A DNA stretch of 64,000 nt from an uncultured Pseudomonadota bacterium. Lineage in GTDB: Bacteria; Bacillota; Sulfobacillia; JAUYEF01. Shown here in pieces: positions 6,002 through 56,065 of the stretch (position 1 is its first letter; every line of letters begins with the position of its first letter). The notes beneath the pieces were generated by a model that was not told where the DNA came from, searched no databases, and worked only from the letters and a program-made list of their open reading frames with translations. A program made the position numbers and the translations under genes. The DNA lies in contig CAYQIY010000011.1 of assembly GCA_964417635.1 (NCBI GenBank), positions 33,741 through 97,740 on the forward strand, written 5' to 3'.

Positions 6002-6087
6002 GTAGACACGTTCTGAGACGCTATCTGAACGAATACTCTTGCTATAAGAGCAGGCATTACGTCTGTTAGAGCCTAGGGGTGGCCCCG

Positions 6088-7706: not shown

Positions 7707-7726
7707 GACAATGCTGCTTATCAATG

Positions 7727-7754
7727 GCCCGGCGCTACCGGGCTTTCTTCATTT
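7727..7754 (+). terminator. Putative terminator/attenuator between sigE and sigG
   Basis: GCCCGG-cgcta-CCGGGC hairpin followed by TTTCTTCATTT. Confidence 0.45.
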
Positions 7755-7869
7755 ACCCCTCTGTGCCGCGTATCTACCAGTAATTGGTACCACCTCGAAT
7801 TAATCCGCACTTTCGGGAGCATAATTATCTTCGCAGGTTAGTCCATTTGTTTCCCGGGGGTCAGCTGGT

Positions 7870-28364: not shown

Positions 28365-28933
28365 CAGAGAACGAGATCATCTCACTGTTTGAGGAGACAG
28401 GAGTCATTCTTACCGGCCATTTCCGCCTTACGAGCGGTAGGCACAGTGATCGTTTCCTCCAGTGTTCGCAGGTATTGCAGCATCCTGCTGCAACCGAGGC
28501 GCTGTGCAAACAGCTCGCGTCCAAATTCGCGGACGACAAAATCGATGTCGTGGCAGGCCCCGCTATGGGCGGAATCATATTGGCATACGAGGTCAGCAGA
28601 GCTCTTGGCGCGCGAGCAATATACGCCGAACGCGAAGATGGCCAGATGGTGTTACGTCGTGGATTCCACGTGGGACCGAACGAGAACGTGCTGTTGGTAG
28701 AAGACGCCGTAAGCACCGGAGGATCTGTCAATCAGGTCGCGGAAGTGATAGCCGCGTGTGGTGCAAGAATAGTGGGTATCGGGGCGCTTGTGGACAGGAC
28801 AGGTGGCAAAGTGTCTTTCGGCGTACCGTTCAGACCTCTCATTAGCATGGAGATCAAGTCGTATTCACCCGCAGAATGCCCGATGTGCCAACAAGGAATT
28901 CCACTGTATCTGCCGAAATCTGGCCGGCGCTAG
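28361..28933 (+). CDS. pyrE: Orotate phosphoribosyltransferase
   Basis: 190 aa; VLLVEDAVSTGGS PRPP-binding motif. Confidence 0.95.
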   Translation: MTENEIISLFEETGVILTGHFRLTSGRHSDRFLQCSQVLQHPAATEALCKQLASKFADDKIDVVAGPAMGGIILAYEVSRALGARAIYAEREDGQMVLRRGFHVGPNENVLLVEDAVSTGGSVNQVAEVIAACGARIVGIGALVDRTGGKVSFGVPFRPLISMEIKSYSPAECPMCQQGIPLYLPKSGRR

Positions 28934-28947
28934 TCAGGCGTACGATA

Positions 28948-28989
28948 CACCGGCTGTCCTACTGATGATGACAGCCGGTGTTTGCTTGA
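28948..28989 (+). terminator. Terminator downstream of pyrE
   Basis: Perfect 11-bp inverted repeat CACCGGCTGTC...GACAGCCGGTG followed by TTTGCTTG. Confidence 0.55.
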
Positions 28990-29078
28990 CTGGAGCGTGC
29001 TAGGCTAACATTGCCCAAGGCTGCAAAACCGCGAAAACGCGCGCTTGAGCGACGTCTAGTCAGAAAAAGGCACGGAGA

Positions 29079-29096
29079 TTGTGAAAAAAATCACTT
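29079..29096. promoter_or_regulatory. Rex-like operator half-palindrome overlapping a TTGACA -35 box
   Basis: TTGTGAAAAAAATCACTT: perfect TTGTGAA half-site plus partial TCAC partner, against the Rex consensus TTGTGAAnnnnTTCACAA; placed upstream of the hydrogenase locus. Confidence 0.35.
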
Positions 29097-29149
29097 GACA
29101 TATGTACAGTATAGATTCACACTTAGTTATGGAAAGGGGGGTTAACTTG

Positions 29150-29713
29150 ATGGCGCAGGAACAGGATGCGCTTGCGATGAGGGTCAAGCGCTTCAGAGAG
29201 AACAACAACATGTCTGTGCGAGCGCTTGCCGCAAGAGTAGGAGTGACTCCCAGTTTTATCTATCAGCTGGAACAGGGCAAGGTTTCGGCTTCATATTCGA
29301 CTCTTAAGAGCATAGCCTCCGCTCTGCACACTTCTGTATCGGTGCTTGCCGGTGACGAAGTACCGACTGAGTGGTTCCTAGTCAAAAAGCACGACAGACG
29401 GAAATTGGTGCTCGACGGCACGGGGATGGCTTACGAACTGCTGAACTTCACGGGAGCGCGTGCTAAGCGAATGCATCCGCTGTTTTTCACGCTGGATGCA
29501 GGTGCTGAGGAGCGAGGTACTCTGTACGAGCACGAGAGAGAAGAGTTTGTGTTTCTAATTGAGGGACAGTTGGAGATCGTGATGGCAGGCAAGAAATACA
29601 CGCTTGAGGGCGGAGACGCGCTGTACTTCATGTTTGAGAGGCCTGAGGTCATCAGGAACACAGGAGAGAGCAAAGCCCAAGGCATTCTGGTGGTATCACC
29701 TCCGGGCGTATAG
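29150..29713 (+). CDS. XRE-family transcriptional regulator with C-terminal cupin domain
   Basis: ORF 29102..29713; start at Met17 after GGAAAGGGGGG; N-terminal HTH (MSVRALAARVGVTPSFIYQLEQGK), C-terminal cupin-like beta segment. Confidence 0.8.
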   Translation: MAQEQDALAMRVKRFRENNNMSVRALAARVGVTPSFIYQLEQGKVSASYSTLKSIASALHTSVSVLAGDEVPTEWFLVKKHDRRKLVLDGTGMAYELLNFTGARAKRMHPLFFTLDAGAEERGTLYEHEREEFVFLIEGQLEIVMAGKKYTLEGGDALYFMFERPEVIRNTGESKAQGILVVSPPGV

Positions 29714-29741
29714 CAGCACAGTGAATGAGAGGTGTGTTGTA

Positions 29742-32177
29742 GTGGACGAACTAGCGATCGACCGCAAATTCGAGAAAGTCAACGAGATTGTCGAAAAACA
29801 CAACCGCAAAGTCTCGAGTCTGGTCACCATTTTGCAGGAGGTACAGCAAGAGTACAGGTACCTTCCGCAGGAAGTGATGACCTATATAGCTACTGCACTC
29901 GGGATACCGCCTGCGATGGTTTACGGCGTGGCCACGTTCTATTCACAGTTCTCGACCGAACCTAAGGGAAAGTACGTCGTAAGAGTATGCGACGGTACAG
30001 CTTGTCACGTGAGAGGATCAGATCCGGTACACTTCGCGATACGCAGAGCGGCGGGACTCAGTGGAGACAGAGTCACAACCGATGACCTCATGTTCACGGT
30101 TGAGACAGTCGCATGCGTCGGAGCGTGTGGGCTTGCACCGGTGGTGATGGTGAACGACGATAGGGTCTACGGCCAAGTGTCACCTCAGGAAGCAGCCATA
30201 CTCATAGAAGAACTGAGGACGGACAATCCGCCAGCAACCCGTTCCGAACAAGCGGTCGAGACAACCAAGTCGGCTGCGCGCGTCTTTGAACGGCTGAGCA
30301 ACAGGCGTGCCTTGGACGCGCTTCGCCAGTCTGCTCTTGACGCAGTGAAGAACCAGAAGGCACGGATTTTGGTGTGTATGGAGACTGCGTGCTTGGCAAA
30401 CGGCGCACAGCAGGTATATGAGGCGTTTAAGCAGCAAGTCAAGGCTAAGCAGCTGGGCGCAGAAGTAGTAGAACTGCGCGAGCCGGCTACACCCGGGGAT
30501 GTTGCGCTGGTAAAAGCAGGTTGCCACGGCTACTGTCAGATAGGTCCGCTGGTCAAGATTATGCCGCAAGACGTGTTGTACGCTCATGTCGGGCCAGAAG
30601 ACGTAGACGAAATCCTTGAGAAGACGATCGTAAAAGGCGAGATTATCGAGAGGCTGCTGTACAAAGACGCTGCAACGGGCGACACTGCAGTGTCTGAAGA
30701 ACAGAACCCGTTCTACAAAGGCCAGCGCAAAGTGGCGCTTGCTTTGTGTGGCCTAATAGACTCAGAAGACATATACGAGTACGTAGCATTTGGGGGATAC
30801 CAGGCGTTTGCCAAAGCGATATTCGAGTTATCACCCGAACGCGTGATCGATGAGGTTATTGGGTCTGGGCTGAGAGGCCGCGGAGGCGGTGGATTCCCCA
30901 CAGGTAAGAAGTGGCATTTCGCCAGGCAGGCTAAATCGGACACCAAGTACGTTATCTGTAATGCAGACGAGGGTGACCCCGGTGCGTTCATGGATAGAAG
31001 CGTCATGGAAGGCGACCCGCATCGGTTGCTCGAGGGAATGATGATAGCTGGCTATTCGATCGGCGCGAACGAGGGTTACATCTATGTTCGAGCCGAGTAT
31101 CCGTTGGCGGTGAAGAGACTGCGTAAGGCGATTGCTGAGGCTACTGCGCTTGGTCTTCTTGGAGACAACATTTTGGGCAGCGGCTTCGGGTTTCGCATTA
31201 ATATCAAAGAGGGAGCTGGTGCTTTCGTCTGCGGCGAGGAGACGGCACTTCTGGCATCGATGATGGGCGAAAGAGGCATGCCGAAGCCCAAACCTCCTTT
31301 TCCATCTGACTCAGGCCTTCTTGGAAAACCGACGATCATTAACAATGTCGAGACGTTTGTTAACGTACCCTCGATAATATCTGCTGGCAAGGAATGGTTC
31401 AGGTCGATGGGAACCGAACGAAGCCCCGGTACGAAGACCTTCGCTCTGGCCGGGCAAGTGGCGCGCACCGGTCTTATCGAGGTGCCCATGGGGATGAGTT
31501 TGAGAGATGTGGTGTTCGGAATCGGTGGCGGAATGCGGAGACCTGGGTACGAGTTCAAAGCGGTGCAGATAGGCGGGCCATCAGGAGGCTGTCTGACAAA
31601 AGAGCATCTCGACCTGCCGCTGGATTTCGATTCTCTAACCAGCGTAGGCGCCATGATAGGCTCAGGTGGTCTTGTGGTGGTGGACAGCGGAACGTGTATG
31701 GTTGAGATGGCCAAGTTCTTCATGGCGTTCGTGCAGAACGAGAGCTGCGGCAAGTGTGTACCGTGCAGAGAGGGCACCAAGCAGATGCTAGCTCTGCTGA
31801 ACAAGATAACCGAAGGCAAGGGTACGCTTCAGGACATAGACACGCTGTGCCACCTTGCGGATATGGTTAAGACGAGCGCGCTATGCGGACTGGGCAAGAC
31901 TGCTCCAAATCCAGTGCTGACCACGCTTCAGTATTTCAAGGACGAGTACCTTGCGCACGTCGTCTCAAAGCATTGCCCCGCCGGCGTATGCAAACAGCTA
32001 CAGAAGTACTGTATTGACTTGGAGAAGTGTAAGGGCTGCGGCTTGTGCAAGAAAGTGTGTCCCGTGGGCGCTATATCAGGCGAGATAAAGGGGCCTCACA
32101 CAATCGATCAAGAGAAATGCATCAAATGCGGGGCTTGCGTGGAACGCTGCAAGTTCAACGCGATCATCGTGTCATAG
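29742..32177 (+). CDS. Fused NuoE-like/NuoF-like NADH-binding hydrogenase subunit (HydC-HydB fusion)
   Basis: ORF 29604..32177 trimmed to GTG after GAGAGGTG (upstream part overlaps regulator); N-terminal 2Fe-2S NuoE-like domain (CDGTACH..CVGACGLAP), ~45 aa linker, then 2Fe-2S thioredoxin-like domain, NuoF FMN/NAD module (GRGGGGFPTGKKW, ESCGKCVPCREG) and C-terminal 2x[4Fe-4S]; no stop between the E-like and F-like parts. Confidence 0.85.
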   Translation: MDELAIDRKFEKVNEIVEKHNRKVSSLVTILQEVQQEYRYLPQEVMTYIATALGIPPAMVYGVATFYSQFSTEPKGKYVVRVCDGTACHVRGSDPVHFAIRRAAGLSGDRVTTDDLMFTVETVACVGACGLAPVVMVNDDRVYGQVSPQEAAILIEELRTDNPPATRSEQAVETTKSAARVFERLSNRRALDALRQSALDAVKNQKARILVCMETACLANGAQQVYEAFKQQVKAKQLGAEVVELREPATPGDVALVKAGCHGYCQIGPLVKIMPQDVLYAHVGPEDVDEILEKTIVKGEIIERLLYKDAATGDTAVSEEQNPFYKGQRKVALALCGLIDSEDIYEYVAFGGYQAFAKAIFELSPERVIDEVIGSGLRGRGGGGFPTGKKWHFARQAKSDTKYVICNADEGDPGAFMDRSVMEGDPHRLLEGMMIAGYSIGANEGYIYVRAEYPLAVKRLRKAIAEATALGLLGDNILGSGFGFRINIKEGAGAFVCGEETALLASMMGERGMPKPKPPFPSDSGLLGKPTIINNVETFVNVPSIISAGKEWFRSMGTERSPGTKTFALAGQVARTGLIEVPMGMSLRDVVFGIGGGMRRPGYEFKAVQIGGPSGGCLTKEHLDLPLDFDSLTSVGAMIGSGGLVVVDSGTCMVEMAKFFMAFVQNESCGKCVPCREGTKQMLALLNKITEGKGTLQDIDTLCHLADMVKTSALCGLGKTAPNPVLTTLQYFKDEYLAHVVSKHCPAGVCKQLQKYCIDLEKCKGCGLCKKVCPVGAISGEIKGPHTIDQEKCIKCGACVERCKFNAIIVS

Positions 32178-32189
32178 GGGGCGATATTC

Positions 32190-34208
32190 ATGGCAGGGGC
32201 TCCGTCAGTCAAGATCAACGGACGAGCGTGCAAGATAGACGGCGAAACCAACATACTCGAGTTGGCCAGAAAGCAAGGTATAGACATTCCATCGTTCTGT
32301 TACCACTCAGAATTGAGTGTGTACGGGGCGTGCAGAATGTGCCTGGTCGACGTTGAGGGAATGGGGCTTGTAGCAGCGTGCTCCACCGTGCCAAGAGATG
32401 GTATGGTCATCGAAACGATGACCGAAAAGGCACAAGCAGTGCGCAAGACGATACTCGAATTACTGCTTGCCAACCATGACAGAGAGTGTACGGCGTGCGA
32501 CAAAAACGGCTCGTGCAAGCTGCAAAAACTCGCATACCAGCTAGGCGTGGATAGAGTGCGCTTCGGTACGCCTGAACTCATGGCGCAAGTAGACCTAGAT
32601 GGACCTGCTATAGTGCGCAATCCCAACAGATGCATATTGTGCGGCGATTGCGTGAGAATGTGCCGCGAGATCCAGGGGATTGGCGTGCTGGACTTCACAC
32701 ACCGAGGCCCAAAGACGAGTGTGGAGCCCGCTTTCGGCAAGAAACTCACCGAAGTGGAGTGTGTCAACTGCGGTCAGTGCATAGCGGTGTGTCCGACCGG
32801 CGCGCTGACGGCAAAATCACAGGTTACCGGCGTGTGGGGTGCACTGCACGACGAGACTAAGACCGTCGTTGTGCAAATTGCGCCGGCCGTGCGTGTGGCT
32901 ATAGGCGAGGAGTTTGGACTGGGCGCGGGAGAGGTAGCAACAGGCAAGATTGCCGCGGCTATGAGGCTTATGGGGTTCGACTATGTGTTCGACACCACAT
33001 TCGCGGCAGATCTCACCTCGGTCGAAGAGACTCACGAATTCGTCCAAAGGCTTACGGCAGGTCAGAAACTGCCTCACCTTACGTCATGCTGTCCGGGCTG
33101 GGTGAAGTACTGTGAGCAGTTCTATCCTGGCATGCTCAAGAATCTGTCAACCTGCCGGTCGCCTCAGCAGATGTTTGGATCTATGGCAAAGCACTATTTT
33201 GCTTCCAGCATCAACAAGAAGGCTTCGGATCTGACTGTGGTGTCCGTGATGCCGTGCACTGCCAAGAAGTTCGAGGCAGAACGGCCAGAGTTCGCGGACA
33301 AAGACCAAAAAGATGTGGACTTCGTGCTCACAACCGTAGAACTAGCACGCATGATAAAAGAGTCCGGGATACTGTTTGACGAAATAGAGCCCGAGGCGAT
33401 GGATGTGCCTCTCGGACTGGGAACCGGAGCAGGCGTGATATACGGCGTCACCGGCGGCGTGGCTGAGGCGGTATTGCGCACAGCATACAGCATGTTAAGT
33501 GGCGGTAAGATCGACCATCTCGAGTACCAGGAAGTGCGCGGTATGGAGGGGGTCAAGACTGCCGAGATAGAAATCCTCGGAAACAAGGTCAAACTTGCCG
33601 TGGTGAGCGGCCTTGCCAACGCCAAGCGAGTGCTTGACGCCGTGAACGCCGGAGAGATGACATGCCACATCATAGAGGTCATGGCGTGTCCAGGCGGCTG
33701 CGTCGGAGGAGGCGGACAGCCGTACCCGAACGATACACGCGTCAGAGCACGTAGAGGGAAGGGGCTCTACACTCTCGACAGACAGATGCAGCTGAGACAT
33801 CCAACCGAGAACGTGTACGTCAAGATGCTGTACGATAAGTGGCTTGGTGAGCCAGGCAGTGAAGTGGCACATCGCGCACTGCACACGACCTACTATCCGA
33901 GACGCAGAATCAGTGGAGAAGTGATTGAAGGCATCATGAAGGCTCAGTGCGATGCGCCGGTGCGAGTGTCGGTCTGTGTGGGTACAGGTTGCTACACTCG
34001 CGGTTCGTACGAAGTGCTTGCGCGGATCCGCGAACTGGCAGAAGCATATGGGTTGGAGGGTTCTGTCGAAGTGACGGCGACGTTCTGTTTGGAGCGCTGT
34101 TCTGAGGGCGTGAGCGTAAGAGTTGGAGATCAGATCGTAACCGGAATAAATCCCGACAATGTCGAAGAACTGTTCAAGCACAAAGTGCTTGCGCAGGTCT
34201 CCAACTAA
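32190..34208 (+). CDS. hydA: [FeFe]-hydrogenase catalytic subunit HydA
   Basis: H-cluster motifs L1 TSCCPGW, L2 MPCTAKKFE, L3 EVMACPGGCVGGGGQP; N-terminal 2Fe-2S + [4Fe-4S] domains; extra C-terminal thioredoxin-like 2Fe-2S domain. Confidence 0.92.
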   Translation: MAGAPSVKINGRACKIDGETNILELARKQGIDIPSFCYHSELSVYGACRMCLVDVEGMGLVAACSTVPRDGMVIETMTEKAQAVRKTILELLLANHDRECTACDKNGSCKLQKLAYQLGVDRVRFGTPELMAQVDLDGPAIVRNPNRCILCGDCVRMCREIQGIGVLDFTHRGPKTSVEPAFGKKLTEVECVNCGQCIAVCPTGALTAKSQVTGVWGALHDETKTVVVQIAPAVRVAIGEEFGLGAGEVATGKIAAAMRLMGFDYVFDTTFAADLTSVEETHEFVQRLTAGQKLPHLTSCCPGWVKYCEQFYPGMLKNLSTCRSPQQMFGSMAKHYFASSINKKASDLTVVSVMPCTAKKFEAERPEFADKDQKDVDFVLTTVELARMIKESGILFDEIEPEAMDVPLGLGTGAGVIYGVTGGVAEAVLRTAYSMLSGGKIDHLEYQEVRGMEGVKTAEIEILGNKVKLAVVSGLANAKRVLDAVNAGEMTCHIIEVMACPGGCVGGGGQPYPNDTRVRARRGKGLYTLDRQMQLRHPTENVYVKMLYDKWLGEPGSEVAHRALHTTYYPRRRISGEVIEGIMKAQCDAPVRVSVCVGTGCYTRGSYEVLARIRELAEAYGLEGSVEVTATFCLERCSEGVSVRVGDQIVTGINPDNVEELFKHKVLAQVSN

Positions 34209-34250
34209 TGGAGAACGGTCGACTAACGGATATTCCGAAAGGAGTCGACA

Positions 34251-34502
34251 GTGTTGATTACCGTCCAGGTTTGCATGGGGAGCTCCTGCTATATAAGGGG
34301 TTCGGCCAAGGTGGTTGAGACGTTAAGAAGACTGATAGAGCGAAATGGTCTTCTGAACAAAGTCGTGCTGAAAGGCAGCTTCTGCATGGAGCGCTGCACG
34401 CACGGAGTCACAATCAAAATAGATGACAGCCTTTTTACAGGTGTTCACCCAGAGGACATTGAACAGCTGTTCAGTCGCGAAGTGCTCGCACGCATTTCGT
34501 GA
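34251..34502 (+). CDS. Small thioredoxin-like [2Fe-2S] ferredoxin (NuoE-like fold)
   Basis: 83 aa, four Cys (CMGSSC...CMERC); paralogous to the C-terminal domain of HydA; GTG start after AAAGGAG. Confidence 0.7.
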   Translation: MLITVQVCMGSSCYIRGSAKVVETLRRLIERNGLLNKVVLKGSFCMERCTHGVTIKIDDSLFTGVHPEDIEQLFSREVLARIS

Positions 34503-36265
34503 CCCGAATAGAGGAGGTGGCGGCTCTCGTGGGGATCATCTCGACGATAGAAGCTAGGTGCAAGGATTGCTACAAGTGCCTAAGGGCATGTCCGGTCAAG
34601 GCGATAAAATTTGTGCCGGGAGATGCATCGGGTGAATTGCACGCTCGCGTGGTCGACGATATGTGTGTGCTTTGTGGTACGTGTGTAAAAGAGTGCCCTC
34701 AAAACGCCAAGAAGGTTCGTGAAGACCTGGACGTTGTCAAGCACATGCTTGAGTCAAAGCGACCGGGCGTGCCCATCGGCGTTAGCATTGCACCGTCGTT
34801 TGTGTCGGGTATGATGCTTGAAGAGCCGCTCGGCATAGTGAGCGCACTCAAGCGACTGGGGTTCGATGTGGTAGAGGAAACCGCGATAGGTGCTGCGCTT
34901 GTGGCTAAGTTTCACTCAGAATACGAACCGGACTCACAGCCTAAAGTCATAGGTACTGCGTGTCCGGTAGTGGTGAACCTCGTAGAGAAGTACTATCCGG
35001 ACGCAATAAGCAGCATGACACCTGTCGTTTCTCCCATGATAGCGCATGCTCGCGACCTTCGCGCGCGCCACCCTGGGATTCAGGTTGTGTTCATCGGGCC
35101 TTGCTTTGCCAAGAAGAGTGAGGCAGAGGAAGCTTACGGCAGTTCTGAGGTGGCGGCGGTGTTGACGTTCGCCGAACTGGCGAAGTGGTTCGAAGAAGAG
35201 GGCATAGACCTCGAGCAGATGCAGCCAGCAGAATTCGAAGGGCCGAATCCAGGCACCGCACGCTTTTTCCCGCTAGAGGGCGGCCTGCCTCATACAGCTT
35301 CGATGGAAACCGGAGTAGGCGCAAAAACTACTCTCGCTGTATCAGGTATCGAAGAGTGCATGGATTTCCTTAAGATGGCGCAGGAAGACAACCCCCTGAT
35401 AAAAGACATCGCAGTGGCTGATCTTCTAGCATGCAGAGGCGGCTGCATAAACGGCCCGGGCATCGCGACTACTGCAGACCAGTTCACGCGAAGAGCACAC
35501 CTTGTGCAGTATGCTGCAGCGAAAAAGCGCTTGACGTGCGAGGTAGATGAACCCAGCGCCGAAGATATCGATCTCTCGCGCGCATTCTGCTCCAAACAGC
35601 CCAAACTGCGTCAGCCTACAGAACAAGAAATACGGCAGATTCTCGAGCGTACTGGCAAGATGACAGAGGCTGACGAACTGAACTGCGGTTCATGCGGATA
35701 CAGTTCGTGTAGGGCAAAAGCCATAGCGGTGTACCAAGGACTGGCTGAGATAGAGATGTGCCTTCCGTACATGCGCTCAAAGGCAGAGTCGCTCTCGAAC
35801 TCGGTTGTGGAGCATGCACCAGACGGCATCGTAGTCGTTGACAGTGCTTGCCGAATAGTCCAGGTAAACCGTTCGTTTGAACGGATGTTTGGGTCAGGTG
35901 CCAAGAACGTTTTGGGACAGCCACTTGCGAACATCATTGATTCTGAGAACTATGAGCGGGTTCTCAGTGAGCACAAGCCCATCATGGTGACATGTGCGTA
36001 TCCGAAATATGGAGTGGTGACGCTCCAGACCATATTCTATATGCCTGACCAGAGGCTCGCGGTCGGTATAATGGCCGACATCACCGAAGAAGAGAAGCGC
36101 AAAGAAGCCATGCTGAAACTCAAAGCCGCTACCATGACTCGGGCACAAGAGGTCATCAACAAGCAGATGAAGGTGGCGCAGGAAATAGCGAGCCTTCTGG
36201 GAGAGACTACCGCAGAGACCAAAGTGCTGCTTTCAAAAATCATTGAACTAAACCGCCAGGACTGA
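34499..36265 (+). CDS. hydS: Putative sensory [FeFe]-hydrogenase HydS (ferredoxin + degenerate H-cluster domain + PAS)
   Basis: N-terminal 2x[4Fe-4S] ferredoxin motifs; H-domain with altered motifs (TACPVV, GPCFAKK, LACRGGCINGPG); Cx2Cx4Cx16C motif (CGSCGYSSC...C) then PAS-like domain; start may be ~34529. Confidence 0.8.
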   Translation: MTRIEEVAALVGIISTIEARCKDCYKCLRACPVKAIKFVPGDASGELHARVVDDMCVLCGTCVKECPQNAKKVREDLDVVKHMLESKRPGVPIGVSIAPSFVSGMMLEEPLGIVSALKRLGFDVVEETAIGAALVAKFHSEYEPDSQPKVIGTACPVVVNLVEKYYPDAISSMTPVVSPMIAHARDLRARHPGIQVVFIGPCFAKKSEAEEAYGSSEVAAVLTFAELAKWFEEEGIDLEQMQPAEFEGPNPGTARFFPLEGGLPHTASMETGVGAKTTLAVSGIEECMDFLKMAQEDNPLIKDIAVADLLACRGGCINGPGIATTADQFTRRAHLVQYAAAKKRLTCEVDEPSAEDIDLSRAFCSKQPKLRQPTEQEIRQILERTGKMTEADELNCGSCGYSSCRAKAIAVYQGLAEIEMCLPYMRSKAESLSNSVVEHAPDGIVVVDSACRIVQVNRSFERMFGSGAKNVLGQPLANIIDSENYERVLSEHKPIMVTCAYPKYGVVTLQTIFYMPDQRLAVGIMADITEEEKRKEAMLKLKAATMTRAQEVINKQMKVAQEIASLLGETTAETKVLLSKIIELNRQD

Positions 36266-36272
36266 GGCCGAT

Positions 36273-37424
36273 ATGCAGCTTTTCTATGAAGTGGGATACT
36301 CGCAGCTCAACAAGAACAACGAAGAACTGTGTGGCGATAGCGTCGAAGTAACTCGCACTCGCCGCTCAACGATCGTCACGGTGTCTGACGGGCTGGGTAG
36401 CGGCGTCAAGGCTAACATTCTGTCGTCTCTGACCACCAAGATGGCAGCCACCATGCTGAAAAAAGGTTCAGCTGTGGACGAAGTGATCGAGACGCTGGTG
36501 GGTACGCTGCCCACATGTAAGGTCAGAAAGCTGGCCTACAGCACTTTCACCGTGGCAAAGTTGGATACTGACGGCAGCATCTACATAGCCGAATACGATA
36601 ACCCTCCGGTGATGTCGGGCTCAGCGCAGGCTCAGCTGGACGTAAGGTTTTGTGAGCGGGAAGTCGGCGAAAAGACGATTCGCGAGGCTCGGTTTCGGGC
36701 GAAGCCAGGAGACTGGCTCGTGATAGTGAGCGACGGCGTACTGCACGCCGGTATAGGAGGAGTCTGGAACCTCGGGTGGGGTTGGGACAGAGTATCCAGC
36801 TACGTGAGCCGACTCGCGGCGAGTGGTCTTAGCGCAGACGAACTGGCAGCAGATGTCACGTCTTTGTGCAACAGGCTCTACGGAGCAATGCCCGGGGATG
36901 ATGCCACTTGCGTGGCGATTAGAGTCAGGGAGCCGCGGCATCTCGCACTGATGGTAGGCCCACCGGCAGACCCAAAAGACGACGAGATTGCCGTGCAGCG
37001 CCTGCTCGAGTGCCCAGGCAGGAAGGTGGTCGCCGGTGGCACAACCGGGAACCTGGTAGCCCGTGCGCTAGGCAAGCCCATAACAGTCGACCTTGGTTCG
37101 TGTTACGAGGACGTGCCTCCGACAGGTGTTATCGAGGGCATCGATCTTGTGACCGAAGGTATGCTCACGCTTGTAAAGACGCTTGAACACCTGAGGAAGA
37201 ATACATCTCTGTCCCGGTTTGAAGGTAGAAGAGACGGTGCAAGCAGGCTGGCTCGCGCTTTGCTTGAAGCCGACAAGGTGCACGTAATAGTAGGACGCGC
37301 CATAAATCCGGCTCATCAGAGTCGTGATGTGCCTGCGGCACTTGCGCTAAAGAGCCAACTCATAGACGACATAATACGCGAACTACGAAAGAGGCAGAAG
37401 CGGGTGAGCGTTGAGTATCACTGA
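36273..37424 (+). CDS. SpoIIE/PP2C-family serine phosphatase with C-terminal uncharacterised domain
   Basis: 383 aa; PP2C-like N-terminal half (GDSVEV..VSDGLGSG..., VSDGVLHAG, DDATCVAI); follows hydS with 7-nt gap. Confidence 0.75.
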   Translation: MQLFYEVGYSQLNKNNEELCGDSVEVTRTRRSTIVTVSDGLGSGVKANILSSLTTKMAATMLKKGSAVDEVIETLVGTLPTCKVRKLAYSTFTVAKLDTDGSIYIAEYDNPPVMSGSAQAQLDVRFCEREVGEKTIREARFRAKPGDWLVIVSDGVLHAGIGGVWNLGWGWDRVSSYVSRLAASGLSADELAADVTSLCNRLYGAMPGDDATCVAIRVREPRHLALMVGPPADPKDDEIAVQRLLECPGRKVVAGGTTGNLVARALGKPITVDLGSCYEDVPPTGVIEGIDLVTEGMLTLVKTLEHLRKNTSLSRFEGRRDGASRLARALLEADKVHVIVGRAINPAHQSRDVPAALALKSQLIDDIIRELRKRQKRVSVEYH

Positions 37425-39139
37425 GGTTTGGCTGTGCGCGCATCTGTCGGGTCAACTGCTATCGTGCGGTGGTGGTCGTATATGACCATGCCCGGTCTTG
37501 AACCAGGCGGTTTTCGGACGTGCTTGACGTGCGTGTAATCCACGAGCACCTTTGTGGAATGCCTTGCCTTGCTGTACGCGGCTGCGATAGCGGCCGCTTC
37601 TTTGATTGACTGCTGCTGCACATCACCCCTGTTTCTCAGGATTACGTGCGCACCCGGAACATCTTTTGCGTGAAACCATAGATCGTCGGGTTTTGCCACG
37701 CGGTTAGTGAGGTAGTCGTTCTGCTTGTTGTTCGTTCCGAACAGTACTTCGTCTCCGAGCGAGGTCCGGATTGCCTGAAAATAGGGTGTTGACTGGCCAG
37801 TACGACTCGGCTTTGAGCGTGTTCTCGTTTCTCTGGGCTTGTAAAACCCTTGCTGTGTGAGTTCAGATCTGACGTCTTCAATGTGTTGTACTGAGCATGC
37901 AAATTCGAGCGATTCAAGCACGCCCTCAAGATAAGCGAGATCGGCCTGATCGCTCTGTACTTGAGGCAAGAGCGCCTCATACCTCGCTCTCTCTTTAGAG
38001 TACCTGCGGTAGTACGACTGAGCGTTCTCGGATGCCGACTTTCGTGGGTCAAGCTCGACTCTTATCGCCGTGCCTTCTGCTGGATCGAGCAGTTCGACCG
38101 AGCGCCCGCCGGCGGCCAATACAGACCTGACTTCGGGCAGGTAGGTGAGAATGAGGTCGGCCTTGTGTTTTAGTGCGTCGCGTTCTAGCGATTTGCTTAT
38201 CTCTTTGCTACGCACTTCAAGACGTCTCCTGATTCTCTGGATGCACGTGCCGAGCACCTGCCGGACAGAATGCGCCTGCGTTTGCACATCTTCAATAGAC
38301 TTGAGTTCTGAGTAGAAACGGTCGAGCGCTTCACTCACATCGCAGAAGGTTTCTCGACTGGTGTGCTGGATACCGAGTTCCACCACATGCACTTCAAGCG
38401 GTTTTCCGGATGCGTCGAAGTAGATGTGGGCTGCCTGCTGCTGTGATTCACGCCAGATATCACGCGTTGCCATGGATAGCGCCTCTGCAGGGCAGTAAAG
38501 CGTCTCCAGGTGTCTGGAGCGCTGACACACCTCGCGCGCAAGCAGCGGCCCAAAACCTCTAACACACGAAAGCACCGCTCGCTCGCAGTCTGTGACGGCA
38601 TTGCCGAACGTATCTTTTGTCACACACGTGGGCGGAGTTTTGCCAGGAGGAGGAGGAGGTTCATATGCCATACCGGGTAGTAACTGCCTATACCTGTTGT
38701 GCGAAGCGTGAACCGGACGCATAACCCCCGCTATCCCGAGATCAGAGTCACAGAGTATCAGGTTGCTTCGCTTCGCCATTATTTCGATTACCAGCGACAA
38801 CTTCTGTGCGTCTCCTATCTCGTTGCTGCTCAGCACATCTATATGCACCACTCGCTCCATCTCAGGCTGATACACTCGCTCAATTCGGCTTCCTTCAAGC
38901 CGGCGCCTCAGCAGCATACAGAACGCTGGCGGGTGGTCTCCTGTGCGCCTCGGGTTGTCCGTGAAGTGAAGCCTGGCATTACGCGCATCAATAGATACGA
39001 GCAGGTACATGTTAAGCCCCGACTTGCGGAGGCTGAGTATGACCTCGCTGACCGACGGCTGGTCAACTCTCATAACGCGTGCGCCTACGGAGCGAGCTGC
39101 AACCTGCTTTGCGACGACACTCAGCAAAAGTGCATCCAC
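37418..39139 (-). CDS. rqcH: NFACT-family ribosome quality-control protein RqcH / fibronectin-binding protein A
   Basis: ORF 37418..39202 (-); start trimmed to GTG (Val22) by alignment with RqcH N-termini (..RVDQPSVSEVILSLR.., FCMLLRRRLEG); start uncertain. Confidence 0.75.
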   Translation of the reverse strand: MDALLLSVVAKQVAARSVGARVMRVDQPSVSEVILSLRKSGLNMYLLVSIDARNARLHFTDNPRRTGDHPPAFCMLLRRRLEGSRIERVYQPEMERVVHIDVLSSNEIGDAQKLSLVIEIMAKRSNLILCDSDLGIAGVMRPVHASHNRYRQLLPGMAYEPPPPPGKTPPTCVTKDTFGNAVTDCERAVLSCVRGFGPLLAREVCQRSRHLETLYCPAEALSMATRDIWRESQQQAAHIYFDASGKPLEVHVVELGIQHTSRETFCDVSEALDRFYSELKSIEDVQTQAHSVRQVLGTCIQRIRRRLEVRSKEISKSLERDALKHKADLILTYLPEVRSVLAAGGRSVELLDPAEGTAIRVELDPRKSASENAQSYYRRYSKERARYEALLPQVQSDQADLAYLEGVLESLEFACSVQHIEDVRSELTQQGFYKPRETRTRSKPSRTGQSTPYFQAIRTSLGDEVLFGTNNKQNDYLTNRVAKPDDLWFHAKDVPGAHVILRNRGDVQQQSIKEAAAIAAAYSKARHSTKVLVDYTHVKHVRKPPGSRPGMVIYDHHRTIAVDPTDARTAKPQ

Positions 39140-39289: not shown

Positions 39290-40168
39290 ATGAGGTTTAC
39301 CAAGATGGAAGGTGCGGGAAACGACTATATCTACGTCAACTGTTTTGCAGAAGGAGTAGAACACGACTGGCCGGAGCTTGCAAGGCAGATCAGCGACAGG
39401 CACTACGGAGTCGGTTCCGACGGACTCATACTTGTCATGCCTTCTGCTTGCGCCGATTTCAGGATGCGCATGTACAACCGCGATGGTTCAGAAGGCGACA
39501 TGTGTGGTAATGGGATACGCTGCTTTGCAAGGTATGTGTACGACCACAGGCTCACAACTAATACGCAACTGTGTATCGAGACCAGAGCTGGCATCATGCG
39601 TTCGAGACTTGTCCTTGACGGGGACAAGGTGCACTCAGTCGAGGTTAACATGGGCAAGCCCGGGCTCAGGCCGGAAGATATACCCATGCGGGTGCCTGAT
39701 GGCTGGATGAGCGCGCAGAACGTTCCGGTATGCGTCGGAGCCACTACCTACAGTGTAACAGGAGTGAAAATGGGCAACCCCAATGGTGTTGTGTTTGTGC
39801 ACAACCTTGAAGATATCGATGTAGCCCGCGACGGGCGTCTGCTTGAACTGAGTCCGGTATTTACCGAAGGTGCGAACATAGAGTTTGTCCAGGTTCTAGC
39901 GCCCGAGCTCATCAAGATGAAGGTGTGGGAGAGAGGCTCCGGAGAGACTCTCTCCTGCGGAACCGGAGCGTGTGCTGCGTTGGTCGCGGCAGCTAACTCA
40001 GGTAGCACCCGTAGAGCGGCCGAGGTGCTGTTACCAGGCGGGCGGCTGTACATTGAGTGGAGACAAGACGGTGACGTGATGATGACCGGTCCTGCCAACG
40101 AAGTGTGTTCTGGTGTATTCACCAGGTGGACTCGGCAGCACGACTACGTGGTTACGTCAGTCGGGTAG
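39290..40168 (+). CDS. dapF: Diaminopimelate epimerase
   Basis: 292 aa; MRFTKMEGAGNDYIYV, catalytic CGNG and C-terminal SCGTGACA Cys motifs. Confidence 0.95.
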   Translation: MRFTKMEGAGNDYIYVNCFAEGVEHDWPELARQISDRHYGVGSDGLILVMPSACADFRMRMYNRDGSEGDMCGNGIRCFARYVYDHRLTTNTQLCIETRAGIMRSRLVLDGDKVHSVEVNMGKPGLRPEDIPMRVPDGWMSAQNVPVCVGATTYSVTGVKMGNPNGVVFVHNLEDIDVARDGRLLELSPVFTEGANIEFVQVLAPELIKMKVWERGSGETLSCGTGACAALVAAANSGSTRRAAEVLLPGGRLYIEWRQDGDVMMTGPANEVCSGVFTRWTRQHDYVVTSVG

Positions 40169-41438
40169 AGAATATGTCATCTAGTCCTGCTTGTTTGACA
40201 CGAGTCTTGGCGGCAAGAGAATCAGGCGTGTAAAGCGATTTGCTCTTCATGTGCTCGAAGAATACAGAGCCGGCAAAGGTGTAAGATTGCTGCAGACCTT
40301 CAGCAGACTTCATCTTTTCGTTCGTGTATGCGATGAATTCGCCAATAGCCGTTGAACGTGACAGGCCGACAAGCGGCATTGCCAGTGCTTTTCGTACTGC
40401 GTTGTGTCCCGCAAGTGTACCGGTTACAATTGCCTCGGTGTGTCCGATCAGCGTACCAGCTTTTTCTCCGGCACAAAGCAGGTTATCCATACCTTCGACT
40501 TGAAGGAACTGGTCTCTCGGCGCAAGCGCGAGAAACCTGACTGAATTTCCGCGACCTCCTGAATAAGGGTCGGCATAGCGTGCCCGTTGGAACCCCGATA
40601 TACTGCGCAGCGAGTCAAGTGGTAGAAAAGGAGTCATGAGTTTGGCGTGGCCCGTATCTAACAGCACGAGATGCTCGGCGTACTCAGATAGTGCGTACTG
40701 CTGGCATGCCTTTATTGAGAGCTTCGCAGAACTGATTAGCGAAGCCGGTAGAGGCGCCACAAACATGCCTGTTCGGTTAAGGGCACCCACGACAGAGCGC
40801 GCCAGGGACTCTTTCGCGATCTTGCAGCTGCCGCTCATTGCGCCAAATACGCCGGGCGTCTTAGTGGCCTGTGATTCGTGTACACCCGCTTTCGCGGCAA
40901 TGCTCACACGAGGGCCGTAAGTCGGACAGCGCTGTACGCACATAGCGCAGCCGTTTCCGAACCTGCTACAGTTTCCCATTGGACCCGATGTGCCTGTCGC
41001 GTCCACAAACACATCTGCCGAGAATTCGTTTGTATGCTCGTCTATGACTGATTTGATCAGCCTGGGACCGGATTTGTGCACGTCCACAACGCGGCACTCC
41101 AGATGCACGCTGACGCCGCGCGAGCCGAGCAACGAACGCACAGCAGGTTCCACTCGATGCACGTCGTACAGCGTTGCATGCAGGTGTCCTGGGAAATCCA
41201 CATCCTTGTGCCGGGCGTGTCTGTCGGTGAGCTTGAACAGATCTCCGCCTCCCATGGCAATTGCTTCTTCGGCCGCTGTGTACCTGCCGTTATTGCGCAT
41301 AATTCCGCCAACAAGTCCTGCTCCGAGAAGCATATCTGTCCTTTCCAGTAAGCTGACTTGCGCACCAGCGCGCTTTGCAGCTATTGCAGCCGCAACCCCC
41401 GACCAGCCGCCTCCGATTACTATTATCTTGGGTTTCAT
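40152..41438 (-). CDS. FAD-dependent oxidoreductase with Cys-cluster insert (GidA/TrmFO-like fold), function unknown
   Basis: 428 aa; N-terminal Rossmann IIVIGGGWSGVAAAIAAKRAG; internal CSRFGNGCAMCVQRCP motif; C-terminal ..CAGEKAGTLIGHTEAIVTGTLAGHNA..TAIGEFIAYTNE resembling TrmFO/GidA C-termini. Confidence 0.55.
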   Translation of the reverse strand: MKPKIIVIGGGWSGVAAAIAAKRAGAQVSLLERTDMLLGAGLVGGIMRNNGRYTAAEEAIAMGGGDLFKLTDRHARHKDVDFPGHLHATLYDVHRVEPAVRSLLGSRGVSVHLECRVVDVHKSGPRLIKSVIDEHTNEFSADVFVDATGTSGPMGNCSRFGNGCAMCVQRCPTYGPRVSIAAKAGVHESQATKTPGVFGAMSGSCKIAKESLARSVVGALNRTGMFVAPLPASLISSAKLSIKACQQYALSEYAEHLVLLDTGHAKLMTPFLPLDSLRSISGFQRARYADPYSGGRGNSVRFLALAPRDQFLQVEGMDNLLCAGEKAGTLIGHTEAIVTGTLAGHNAVRKALAMPLVGLSRSTAIGEFIAYTNEKMKSAEGLQQSYTFAGSVFFEHMKSKSLYTPDSLAAKTRVKQAGLDDIFSTRLT

Positions 41439-41462: not shown

Positions 41463-42416
41463 TTAGAACCTCAGTATGTTGACGGGCGGCATAACTTTGC
41501 ACGCTCTGGCCGGAGCGGCGGCACCCGAGACCGTACAAGAACCACAAATGCCTTCCCCGCAGCACATCAGCGCATTATTCGTATATGCCGTTCTCGATCT
41601 CGGCGCTATCTCATTCGCAAGCGTCTGTAGCATCCGGTGCTGAATGTCTGGACCTGCGCTTATGATAAGGTCGCTCGCGGTGCTACGGATCAGCGTACGG
41701 ATGTCACCTGAATTGTGGTCATCAGTCTTGTCGAGCATCACAATTCTGGCATCACCGTCTGACAACCAGCGTCTCGCGAATACAGCGTCTGAACTGCCTT
41801 GCCCGACCGCCAGCGTGACCGGCGTCTTGCGGTCTGCAAAATACCGAGTGATGTGCGCTGCGCATCCCTGAGCCACCCCCTTTGCAACGATCAGCACGTG
41901 TTTTGCCGGTTGTTTTAAGTTGTTTAGGCCCAGGATTCCACCAAAATACGCGCCCCGAACCGCGAAACTAGTACAAGAGTCCAAGGAGAGCGCACGGCTC
42001 TTGGGGCCGACAACCTGAACGGCAAAATCGACTGTGCTGTCGGACGCGCTTACCTGAGCTGGCGAGAGCGGCACGTCAAAATGGGTGGGGTGGTCGTGCG
42101 GCCTGACAAACACAAAGCTGCCCGGAGGGCTAAGCCTTGCCGAGAACCAGGTAGGCATTTTGATCTTGATGATGAAAGTGTTCGAAGAAACGTGATTTCT
42201 TAGCACCAATTCAGAGCGTACACTCTGTCGCAAGTTTTCGGCTTTCTCAAGTCTCCATCTGAACTCTGCATGAGCACACGAGCCACACCACGCGCACTCG
42301 CAATGGTCGAACCCTGCAAGCAGTGAGCAGTTCACGCATTGTCCGAGTTCTGCCAGATAACACGGGCAGTACCAAGAGCCCGCGTCCACGCAAGGCAGAG
42401 AATGCCAGTCTCGCAT
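41463..42416 (-). CDS. PyrK-like FNR-type flavin reductase with N-terminal Cys-rich domain and C-terminal 2Fe-2S motif
   Basis: 317 aa; GAGGTG RBS 5 nt upstream of ATG; nine Cys in first 50 aa (CPCYLAELGQCVNC..CECAWCGSC); FNR-like body; MCCGEGICGSC like PyrK MACGxGxCGxC. Confidence 0.6.
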   Translation of the reverse strand: MRDWHSLPCVDAGSWYCPCYLAELGQCVNCSLLAGFDHCECAWCGSCAHAEFRWRLEKAENLRQSVRSELVLRNHVSSNTFIIKIKMPTWFSARLSPPGSFVFVRPHDHPTHFDVPLSPAQVSASDSTVDFAVQVVGPKSRALSLDSCTSFAVRGAYFGGILGLNNLKQPAKHVLIVAKGVAQGCAAHITRYFADRKTPVTLAVGQGSSDAVFARRWLSDGDARIVMLDKTDDHNSGDIRTLIRSTASDLIISAGPDIQHRMLQTLANEIAPRSRTAYTNNALMCCGEGICGSCTVSGAAAPARACKVMPPVNILRF

Positions 42417-54983: not shown

Positions 54984-56065
54984 TGTTGTCTATATGTGTT
55001 CAGGGTCTTGAGAAAGCCGAACTACACGAGATAGCCGAGAGACTTGGAGAAAAACCTTTTAGAGGCACACAGGTTTTCGAGTGGGTTCACAAGAAACGTG
55101 CAATCGATTTTGAGCAAATGAGCAATATTGGGGTGGCAACGCGCGCGCTGTTTGAATCGGAGTTCAATCTCGAGTCACTAGAACTGGCAGAGAAACAAAC
55201 CGCCAGAGACGGAAGTCAAAAGTATGTGTTTAGGTGTAGTGACGGCCAGGCGATCGAGTCCGTTCTTATACCGCACAACTATGGCTACAGCGTATGCGTT
55301 TCTACTCAAGCGGGTTGCCGCATGGCATGCGTTTTCTGTGCCTCTGCTACCGGCGGACTAGCAAGAGACCTAAGCGCAGCGGAGATTGTGGGCCAAGTGC
55401 TGTATGTGCAGCGAGGCTTGGACGATTGCGGGCAGCGGGTTTCGCGGGTGGATTTCATGGGTTGTGGAGAACCGCTTGATAACTATGATAACGTCGTAAA
55501 GAGCATAAGAATCATGACTGACCCGTCAGGGCTTGCGATTGGGGCACGTAAGATAACGCTTTCAACGTGCGGACTTGCGCCGGAGATAAGACGACTCGCA
55601 AGAGAAGGGCTGCAGGTCACTTTGTCTGTTTCGCTTCACGCTCCTGACGACGCGACACGTACGACAATCATGCCTGTGAACAAGCGCTATCCTCTCAAGC
55701 AGGTACTCGAGGCTTGTGGCGAGTATTCTAGAATGACCGGGCGCAGAGTGACGTACGAGTACGCACTCATCGACGGTCTAAACGACAGTGTAAACTGTGC
55801 GCGTGACCTTTCGAGGCTTCTGCGTGGCAAGATGGCGCATGTGAACCTGATTCCGCTAAACCCCGTGTCCGGCCGTACGTACGTGAGAAGCGATGCTCAG
55901 AGCGTGATGGCGTTTTGCCGCGAACTCGAGCGTCATGGCGTGCCAGCTAGCATAAGGCGAGAGATGGGAAGTGAGATTGCGGCAGCATGCGGTCAGCTCA
56001 GGAGGAGAGAACTTGATGCAGATGGGCGCCGGCTCGAGAAAAGGGCGGGCAAGAGAGATAAATGA
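54980..56065 (+). CDS. rlmN: 23S rRNA/tRNA (adenine-C2)-methyltransferase RlmN (radical SAM)
   Basis: 361 aa; radical-SAM motif CRMACVFCAS. Confidence 0.95.
   Translation: MMLSICVQGLEKAELHEIAERLGEKPFRGTQVFEWVHKKRAIDFEQMSNIGVATRALFESEFNLESLELAEKQTARDGSQKYVFRCSDGQAIESVLIPHNYGYSVCVSTQAGCRMACVFCASATGGLARDLSAAEIVGQVLYVQRGLDDCGQRVSRVDFMGCGEPLDNYDNVVKSIRIMTDPSGLAIGARKITLSTCGLAPEIRRLAREGLQVTLSVSLHAPDDATRTTIMPVNKRYPLKQVLEACGEYSRMTGRRVTYEYALIDGLNDSVNCARDLSRLLRGKMAHVNLIPLNPVSGRTYVRSDAQSVMAFCRELERHGVPASIRREMGSEIAAACGQLRRRELDADGRRLEKRAGKRDK

Follow-up and report, generated by a model that had tools for sequence, protein, structure and literature searches.

We suggest that the open reading frame at 34499..36265 on the + strand of the window (the whole 64,000-nucleotide stretch of DNA analysed) encodes a group C, putatively H2-sensing [FeFe]-hydrogenase, HydS, whose H-cluster state would be relayed to the PP2C-type phosphatase encoded beside it, and we give this reading as a whole a probability of roughly 0.85. 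Judged by its sequence, the protein would be classed as a typical representative of the known group C (M2f, C3-like) "sensory" [FeFe]-hydrogenases, an assignment that rests on motifs, domains and synteny, with the H-domain compared among nearest relatives only. The nearest relatives retrieved have 43-62% identity and the same architecture. Neither the motif substitutions nor the Cx2Cx4Cx16C motif is new; published descriptions give them in the same terms, and the literature on TmHydS and TamHydS (2018-2026) already covers every feature noted in the initial annotation. The locus is one more clean example of HydS, from a spore-forming Bacillota lineage, and adds nothing beyond a confirmation of the canonical layout.

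Gene start and domain order

The features of the HydS gene are as follows.

34499..36265, + strand: HydS open reading frame, 588 aa as the longest ORF (ORF list, Pfam, relatives)
34550..34708, + strand: ferredoxin-like N-terminal domain with two CxxCxxCxxxC(P) motifs (Fer4_7, aa 20-70)
34781..35458, + strand: H-domain (Fe_hyd_lg_C), aa 95-320 (Pfam, E 4.6e-45)
34955..34972, + strand: motif L1, TACPVV, aa 153-158 (CpI TSCCPGW), with C299 replaced by A154 (alignments)
35096..35116, + strand: motif L2, GPCFAKK, aa 200-206 (CpI MPCTSKK), with M353 replaced by G200 (alignments)
35426..35461, + strand: motif L3, LACRGGCINGPG, aa 310-321 (CpI MACHGGCVNGGG), with M497 replaced by L310 (alignments)
35684..35761, + strand: Cx2Cx4Cx16C site (C396, C399, C404, C421), predicted extra [4Fe-4S] (PF04060, E 3.7e-10)
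35786..36082, + strand: PAS domain with its N-terminal flanking helix, aa ~430-528 (PAS_9, E 1.7e-9; TIGR00229, 46.7 bits)
36134..36244, + strand: post-PAS helical tail, aa 546-582 (..AQEVI.KQM.VAQEIA.LLGETTAETK..L..L..) (column entropy)

The true start is probably the GTG at 34529, giving a protein of 578 aa, since the N-termini of the relatives align from aa 11 of the open reading frame and aa 1-8 fall below a pLDDT of 50 in the AlphaFold2 model, while 34499 is merely the start of the longest ORF. The sequence GGAGG lies at 34513-34517, 5' of this GTG. In Pfam searches the protein reads, in order, two [4Fe-4S] clusters, H-domain, PF04060 and PAS. The initial annotation had proposed a HydS-type paralogue of the catalytic HydA, and the proposal holds, for the domain order, the motifs and the PAS domain are those of the published M2f or group C definition (PMC8163306, PMC10055695).

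H-cluster motifs

It had also been claimed that where the catalytic HydA of the locus carries TSCCPGW, MPCTAKKFE and EVMACPGGCVGGGGQP, all of which we find in the ORF at 32190..34208, the downstream paralogue has substituted counterparts. The substitutions are real: TACPVV, GPCFAKK and LACRGGCINGPG line up column by column with the group A motifs, both when HMMER aligns the protein to CpI and further HydA chains of known structure and when MAFFT aligns it with the window's own HydA and 120 relatives. The agreement of these two independent alignments rules out misalignment.

On the evidence of these sequences, the substitutions are family signatures. Among the 120 relatives, the position of C299 is Ser in 51, Ala in 43, Pro in 14 and Cys in 12 (Ser, Ala or Pro in 108 of 120); that of M353 is Gly in every one; and that of M497 is Leu in 97, Met in 19 and Val in 4. 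Both active-site methionines are gone from the protein (M353G, M497L), as fits the group C pattern of a small residue (Gly, Ser or Thr) for M353 and a variable M497, and the group A proton relay is absent (C299A, E279H, E282Y, R286 deleted, S319T), its positions being taken by A154, H139, Y142, a gap and T174. The H-cluster ligands C155, C202, C312 and C316 align with C300, C355, C499 and C503 of CpI and are invariant in the relatives, as are A98-P99-S100, P179 and K205; the CN-anchoring residues are kept as well. In the N-terminal domain, the motif cysteines are C21/24/27/31 and C56/59/62/66, of which seven are invariant among the relatives; position 59, a Cys here, is Asp in 84 of 116.

Since C299, M353 and M497 are second-sphere residues important in group A, their replacement could be taken to mean that the protein is a degenerate pseudo-hydrogenase, devoid of the [2Fe] subcluster and serving only as a scaffold. 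We reject this reading as scarcely credible, because every H-cluster ligand is invariant; the equivalents of K358 and A230-P231-S232 are invariant too, and TmHydS, which carries the same replacements, assembles a spectroscopically normal H-cluster (PMC10055695). A fold search of the H-domain with Foldseek returned solved [FeFe]-hydrogenases (E 2e-23). No solved structure of a HydS turned up in the searches, in which group A HydA chains were the best PDB matches by sequence and by fold.

The four-cysteine site

The motif CGSCGYSSC-x16-C, noted earlier as lying ahead of the PAS domain, is borne out by a PF04060 match and by the relatives. The segment CGSCGYSSCRAKAIAVYQGLAEIEMC (aa 396-421) is exactly Cx2Cx4Cx16C, it aligns cysteine for cysteine with RnfB (8ahx_B) and with CFeSP (4djd_C, 2h9a_A), and AlphaFold2 confidence across the region is 80-93. 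The bare pattern is weak evidence taken alone, given that it was expected 0.07 times per shuffled window and observed twice, the second match lying in a non-coding frame at 41311 on the - strand. A chance origin of the HydS pattern is ruled out by the invariance of its four cysteines in 120 of 120 relatives. We predict from the sequence that the motif is a [4Fe-4S] site of the PF04060 type; cluster binding at such a HydS site is experimental for relatives only (PMC13104023).

PAS domain and helical tail

The PAS-like character of the C-terminal region, suggested earlier, was confirmed by three approaches. PAS_9, PAS_8, PAS and PAS_4 all exceed their Pfam gathering scores; the AlphaFold2 topology is bb-aaa-bbb, with pLDDT of 90-97 (the AlphaFold2 models have pLDDT of 89.7 and 83.9); and the top Foldseek matches are the PAS domains of LOV, FixL and NifL proteins (E 5.5e-8, target-normalised TM at most 0.73). 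The tail is modelled by AlphaFold2 as a long helix that runs on from the PAS domain, and Pfam and PDB searches with aa 546-582 found no relatives. At 0.68 bits, its column entropy is the lowest of any region of the protein; the H-domain has 1.77 and the PAS core 2.05.

Genomic context

Five neighbouring genes bear on the interpretation.

29102..29713, + strand: XRE-type HTH and cupin regulator heading the cluster (Pfam)
29604..32177, + strand: fused HydC-HydB, NuoE-like + 2Fe-2S ferredoxin + NuoF-like (profile searches)
32190..34208, + strand: catalytic HydA, 672 aa, NADH-dependent/bifurcating type (NF040763, 786 bits, cut-off 765)
34251..34502, + strand: small thioredoxin-like [2Fe-2S] protein, 83 aa, HfsA-like (PF01257, E 3.3e-7)
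36273..37424, + strand: SpoIIE/PP2C-type Ser/Thr phosphatase, 383 aa (PF07228, E 2.6e-15)

The genes for HydC-HydB, HydA, the small [2Fe-2S] protein, HydS and the phosphatase are contiguous on the + strand, an arrangement that suits group C, whose genes adjoin those of a group A hydrogenase and of a signalling partner (PP2C in the C3 type). The regulator occupies the same position only in loci L001 and L010, and the 812-aa homologue of HydC-HydB in the syntenic L001 indicates that the true start of the fused gene is probably near 29736-29742. HydA ends in a [2Fe-2S] thioredoxin-like domain according to Pfam, and the stop of the small [2Fe-2S] gene overlaps the GTG at 34499. Beyond the phosphatase gene lies a convergent NFACT gene and nothing hydrogenase-related. 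A non-exhaustive scan of the window's ORFs met no hydE, hydF or hydG; next to the cluster there is neither a Ser/Thr kinase nor a STAS protein nor anything else that would be an evident substrate of the PP2C, the only kinase/phosphatase pair noticed being the housekeeping PrkC/PrpC at about 56-58.7 kb. Promoter and terminator sites were no commoner over 28800-37700 than in shuffled sequence, and an Rfam scan of 28-40 kb returned no RNA families.

The phosphatase consists of a PP2C half (aa 1-221), whose metal-binding Asp motifs (CGD, DGxGxG, SDG, GDDxT) are shared by 90% or more of 80 orthologues, and a conserved, uncharacterised C-terminal domain (aa 222-383). The latter, searched with 26 members, had no Pfam match at E<=1, and its best hit among PDB profiles (E 1.4) is meaningless. 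A word-index protein search with this domain was uninformative, yielding only proteins of 100-284 aa that are apparently fragments. In an exhaustive search that matched 877 cluster representatives, every near-full-length protein (~380-410 aa) among the best 150 bears the domain at the C-terminus of this same architecture.

The pairing with the phosphatase is close. Its gene stands directly 3' of HydS in 84 of 85 loci, a linkage that holds for close, tail-bearing relatives only, the sample having been drawn by tail and FeS-motif patterns. A HydCBA-type cluster (NuoF-like + HydA) is nearby in 30 of these 85 loci, and the HydS-PP2C pairing persists where HydABC is missing. A homologue of the small [2Fe-2S] protein, as an ORF or as a domain, lies just 5' of HydS in most of them.

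This context bears on two further alternatives. HydS could be a hydrogenase that works at a low rate, or else belong to HydABC as an additional subunit ("BfuT"), its PAS domain then regulating the activity of the enzyme. TmHydS and TamHydS do turn over H2 at low rates (PMC8163306, PMC10055695), in Hydrogenedentota such a gene is named as a T subunit in sub-types of BfuABC (PMC11406978), and the C-terminal [2Fe-2S] domain of HydA has a homologue in the small [2Fe-2S] protein. However, the protein is without the group A proton pathway, the phosphatase pairing is constant even where HydABC is missing, and deletion of hfsB raised hydrogenase activity rather than lowering it (PMC5707799); we consider this alternative, in either form, very improbable.

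Somewhat less remote, although still unlikely, is that HydS senses redox poise or the ferredoxin pool, as reported by its N-terminal clusters, its C-terminal cluster and the small [2Fe-2S] partner, in which case the H-cluster would do no more than link that poise with the H+/H2 couple. The dedicated [2Fe-2S] protein that precedes HydS in most loci speaks for such a sensor, as does the FeS domain, which by column entropy is among the best-conserved regions of HydS. Against it, no relative departs from the H-cluster ligands or the residues that anchor CN, a sign that selection acts on H2 chemistry itself; in TamHydS, moreover, 1 atm H2 leaves the C-terminal cluster unreduced, and activity hardly changes when that cluster is mutated (PMC13104023).

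Proposed function

We return to HydS as a putative H2 sensor. That it is sensory rather than a high-turnover enzyme, a role with which the initial annotation found the motifs consistent, is the accepted but unproven reading for the family. The same substitutions, together with the Cx2Cx4Cx16C motif and PAS layout, define M2f HydS (PMC8163306, PMC10055695), and C3 enzymes with a PAS domain adjoin A3 hydrogenases (PMC11406978). Deletion of hfsB has regulatory phenotypes (PMC5707799), and co-culture data from Ruminococcus albus connect the sensor cluster with regulation that depends on H2 (PMC6776011). Activity is low in both TmHydS and TamHydS. It counts against the sensory reading that H2 sensing has so far been directly demonstrated for no HydS, and that the path of the signal is described as unknown (PMC11376134).

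The mechanism that we propose draws on TmHydS, TamHydS, R. albus HydS and the hfs operon of Thermoanaerobacterium saccharolyticum. With its crippled proton pathway, the H-cluster would serve as a site of slow H2 binding in which reduced states are held stable; of a group C enzyme one would expect low H2 turnover, stabilised Hred states and CO tolerance. The state of the H-cluster would then be passed through the FeS, PAS and tail region to the PP2C phosphatase, which in turn may alter the phosphorylation of some regulator, so that the expression of hydrogenase and fermentation genes would be tuned to the level of H2. HydS is thought to set the balance of H2, ethanol and acetate production. Because H2 fails to reduce the C-terminal cluster of TamHydS (PMC13104023), it is doubtful that electrons are simply handed on to the PAS domain. 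Within the module, constraint is strongest in the four-Cys domain, the post-PAS helix and the C-terminal domain of the phosphatase, which makes these the obvious candidates for the signal-transduction step. It is possible, if on balance doubtful, that PAS-type HydS signals through the nearly invariant tail (aa 546-582) rather than through the PAS core, the tail docking on the equally family-specific C-terminal domain of the phosphatase and the two proteins forming a dedicated, kinase-independent switch from H2 to phosphatase. If so, the partner domain in this switch would be one for which sequence comparison gives no known fold relatives.

Comparison with known systems

A close parallel is TmHydS of Thermotoga maritima (M2f, group C), which, in a comparison made through its published description, has the same order of two [4Fe-4S] clusters, H-domain, Cx2Cx4Cx16C and PAS; its A131 corresponds to A154 here (C299 in CpI) and its G177 to G200 (M353) (PMC10055695). 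The M497 position differs, being Ser in TmHydS and Leu here, in TamHydS and in 97 of 120 close relatives. TamHydS of Thermoanaerobacter mathranii (M2e, group D) shares with the present protein the N-terminal clusters, the lost proton pathway, the C-terminal Cx2Cx4Cx16C cluster motif and the Leu at M497 (PMC8163306). The PAS domain after the four-Cys motif is the mark of M2f as against M2e or group D, and it is present here.

Gene order is that of the systems of HfsB (hfsABCD, T. saccharolyticum) and R. albus HydS, namely small Fe-S protein, HydS-PAS and Ser/Thr phosphatase (PMC5707799, PMC11837493, PMC6776011). In those systems a ferredoxin-linked hydrogenase (hfsD or HydA2) follows the phosphatase, whereas none does so here; unlike them, the HydS module of the window is appended to a NADH-dependent hydC/B-hydA cluster.

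The four-Cys domain itself recalls the PF04060 domains of RnfB and of the CFeSP large subunit, which have the same spacing and flanks (NCG.CG...C...A......G.A....C.P) in the solved chains 8ahx_B, 4djd_C and 2h9a_A. There the domain is N-terminal and its electrons go to Rnf or cobalamin, while in HydS it sits between the hydrogenase domain and the PAS domain. Finally, the regulatory [NiFe]-hydrogenase system HoxBC-HoxJ of Ralstonia/Cupriavidus follows the same logic, in which a slow hydrogenase acts with a PAS-containing signalling partner to govern the hydrogenase genes (PMC5707799, PMC8163306), but its metal site and fold are unrelated to those of HydS, and a histidine kinase takes the place of the PP2C phosphatase as output.

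Organization of the hydrogenase locus

The putative sensory [FeFe]-hydrogenase HydS (group C, M2f, C3-like) lies in a same-strand series of genes that runs from a regulator, through a fused electron-transfer protein, the catalytic hydrogenase HydA and a small [2Fe-2S] protein, to HydS and a phosphatase, after which comes a convergent NFACT gene. The features concerned are as follows.

29102-29713, + strand: XRE-HTH/cupin regulator, heading the cluster
29604-32177, + strand: fused NuoE-ferredoxin-NuoF protein, probable start near 29740
32190-34208, + strand: HydA
34251-34502, + strand: thioredoxin-like [2Fe-2S] protein, 83 aa
34499-36265, + strand: HydS, 588 aa as longest ORF
HydS aa 20-70: two-cluster ferredoxin domain (Pfam)
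HydS aa 95-320: Fe_hyd_lg_C (Pfam, E 4.6e-45)
HydS aa 153-158: TACPVV
HydS aa 200-206: GPCFAKK
HydS aa 310-321: LACRGGCINGPG
HydS aa 394-423: PF04060, "putative Fe-S cluster" (Pfam, E 3.7e-10)
HydS aa 396-421: CGSCGYSSC-x16-C, exactly Cx2Cx4Cx16C
HydS aa 441-530: PAS (four Pfam PAS models above gathering scores)
36134-36244, + strand: post-PAS helical tail, HydS aa 546-582, AQEVI.KQM.VAQEIA.LLGETTAETK..L..L
36273-37424, + strand: SpoIIE/PP2C phosphatase, 383 aa, directly after HydS
36936-37424, + strand: PP2C C-terminal domain, ~160 aa (PP2C aa 222-383)

HydA belongs to the NADH-dependent group A6 (NCBIfam, 786 bits against a cut-off of 765), and the 83-aa protein is a paralogue of its C-terminal thioredoxin-like [2Fe-2S] domain (aa 591-663, 33960-34178), a likeness that gives tblastn E values of 1e-11 to 1e-14 in related loci. 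The ORF at 29604-32177 joins NuoE-like HydC to NuoF-like HydB with an additional 2Fe-2S ferredoxin module between them; its listed TTG start, which overlaps the upstream regulator, is probably some 45 codons too early. The fusion recurs in one related locus (L001) and is suggested by tblastn spans for a second (L010) and for two or three others; in Desulfofundulus the two genes are separate.

The start of HydS itself is probably misplaced. The GTG at 34499 that opens the longest ORF shares bases with the stop codon of the preceding gene (GTGA), and we favor GTG 34529 because a GGAGG at 34513-34517 precedes it, relatives begin at the equivalent position and residues 1-8 are disordered in the AlphaFold2 model.

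A predicted H-cluster site without the group A proton relay

The initial annotation had described substituted H-cluster motifs in HydS and had read them as consistent with a sensory enzyme. All three are literal in the ORF, and the canonical TSCCPGW, MPCTAKKFE and EVMACPGGCVGGGGQP are present in HydA. HMMER alignments to solved HydA chains and a MAFFT alignment that takes in HydA and 120 relatives place both sets in the same columns; the differences are hence not misalignments. Numbered as in CpI, C299 is replaced by A154 (S51, A43, P14 and C12 among the 120 relatives), M353 by G200 (Gly in all 120) and M497 by L310 (L97, M19, V4), while E279, E282 and S319 become H139, Y142 and T174 and R286 is deleted. 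The ligand cysteines C155, C202, C312 and C316 are invariant, as are A98-P99-S100 (A230-P231-S232), P179 (P324) and K205 (K358). Judged from these residues, HydS no longer has the two active-site methionines or the proton relay of group A, and has kept everything needed to hold the H-cluster. The same pattern has been published for the sensory enzymes of Thermotoga maritima (TmHydS; A131, G177 and S267 at the substituted positions) and Thermoanaerobacter mathranii (TamHydS, group D; Ser and Leu in place of the two methionines) (PMC10055695, PMC8163306). The sensory reading agrees with the accepted, putative interpretation.

In the ferredoxin domain, the second ligand of the second motif is C59 (34673-34675). 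This position is Cys in 28 of 116 relatives and Asp in 84 (CxxDxxCxxxCP), so that an Asp-ligated or convertible cluster may prevail in the family.

The C-terminal region of HydS

The four-Cys motif does precede a PAS domain, as initially annotated. All 120 relatives have C396, C399, C404 and C421, which sit in the strongly conserved block DELNCGACGY.SCR[DE]KA.AV..G.AE..MCIPY. Searched alone against the PDB, the segment aligns Cys-for-Cys with the N-terminal cluster domain of RnfB (8ahx_B, E 0.0022) and with the corrinoid iron-sulfur protein large subunit (4djd_C, 2h9a_A). In those structures the motif ligates a [4Fe-4S] cluster. Model confidence over the putative site in HydS is 80-93. The motif is written in the same form in PMC8163306, and TamHydS has been shown to carry the C-terminal cluster, which was also mutated (PMC13104023). 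The bare pattern is neither specific nor diagnostic alone: 0.07 matches are expected per shuffle, and a second literal match in the window (41311-41388, - strand) falls in an alternative, non-coding frame and was rejected as chance.

The PAS assignment is also made by NCBIfam TIGR00229 (46.7 bits, cut-off 22.9). The full-length AlphaFold2 model (117-sequence alignment, mean pLDDT 89.7, pTM 0.80) predicts strands at 443-447, 452-456, 495-501, 506-515 and 520-527 together with three short intervening helices (pLDDT 90-97), which in the model is PAS topology. When aa 385-588 were modelled separately (pLDDT 83.9), the top PDB matches were short LOV proteins, YF1, FixL, NifL and other PAS domains (E from 5.5e-8, target-normalised TM up to 0.73). 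A PAS fold is thus predicted where a PAS-like region had been proposed. For the full-length model, the only PDB matches are group A hydrogenases (E 2e-23); sequence and fold searches found no HydS structure there.

The tail beyond the PAS domain is the least variable part of HydS: among 117 relatives it has twelve invariant residues and an entropy of 0.68 bits, where the FeS domain has 0.80, the H-domain 1.77 and the PAS core 2.05. It has no match in Pfam or the PDB, and we found no mention of it in the HydS literature cited here. The C-terminal domain of the phosphatase is likewise conserved (GPP..D, CGGTT, GIDLVTEG, DGASRL, NPAHQ), with no Pfam match and no sequence relative in the PDB. A search with it matched 877 cluster representatives; every protein of near full length among the best 150 has it after the PP2C domain, in one architecture. 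Conservation of both elements suggests that the tail may contact the phosphatase.

Discussion

By analogy with relatives, HydS would be a slow, H2-binding enzyme whose H-cluster state controls the PP2C phosphatase through the HydS C-terminal region, and the phosphatase would in turn act on a regulator. The locus itself shows the architecture, which residues are kept and which are lost, the genes of the partners, and a PP2C whose catalytic motifs are intact. The XRE-HTH/cupin protein is a candidate for local regulation and might be where the signal ends; of the related loci, only L001 and L010, the two closest syntenic ones, also have it at the head of the cluster. The proposal has weak points: no kinase or STAS partner was seen adjoining the cluster, the only such pair being the housekeeping PrkC/PrpC 20 kb away, and the TamHydS C-terminal cluster is not reduced by H2 (PMC13104023).

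Elsewhere in the window, spoIIGA, sigE and sigG (6079-8637) upstream, and a PrpC-like PP2C with a PASTA kinase (55971-58687) downstream, identify the source as an endospore-forming member of the Bacillota. A 317-aa ORF (41463-42416, - strand) has a Cys-rich N-terminus (CPCYLAELGQCVNCS..CECAWCGSC), a C-terminal CCGEGICGSC and no Pfam match at E<=1e-4; it adjoins a GIDA-like FAD oxidoreductase (40152-41438).

The initial annotation was accurate and its interpretation is the accepted one, re-describing published features of the family; the locus would not surprise a specialist. HydS here is a fairly divergent member of the known HydS family: its closest relative, the best match anywhere (62% identity), is on a fully syntenic metagenomic contig, and among species genomes identity reaches only 45%. 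The HydS-PP2C pair is kept in loci of Desulfofundulus and Thermosediminibacter. In an 85-locus sample, which describes close relatives only since it was drawn with tail and FeS-motif patterns, a PP2C with both halves follows HydS in 84 loci (the exception has no downstream DNA), a small [2Fe-2S] ORF or domain lies upstream in most, and a HydCBA-type cluster lies within 10 kb in 30. The layout is that of hfsA-hfsB-hfsC in Thermoanaerobacterium and of the R. albus HydS cluster (PMC5707799, PMC11837493, PMC6776011), and it matches the "group C3 next to A3" arrangement in Hydrogenedentota (PMC11406978).
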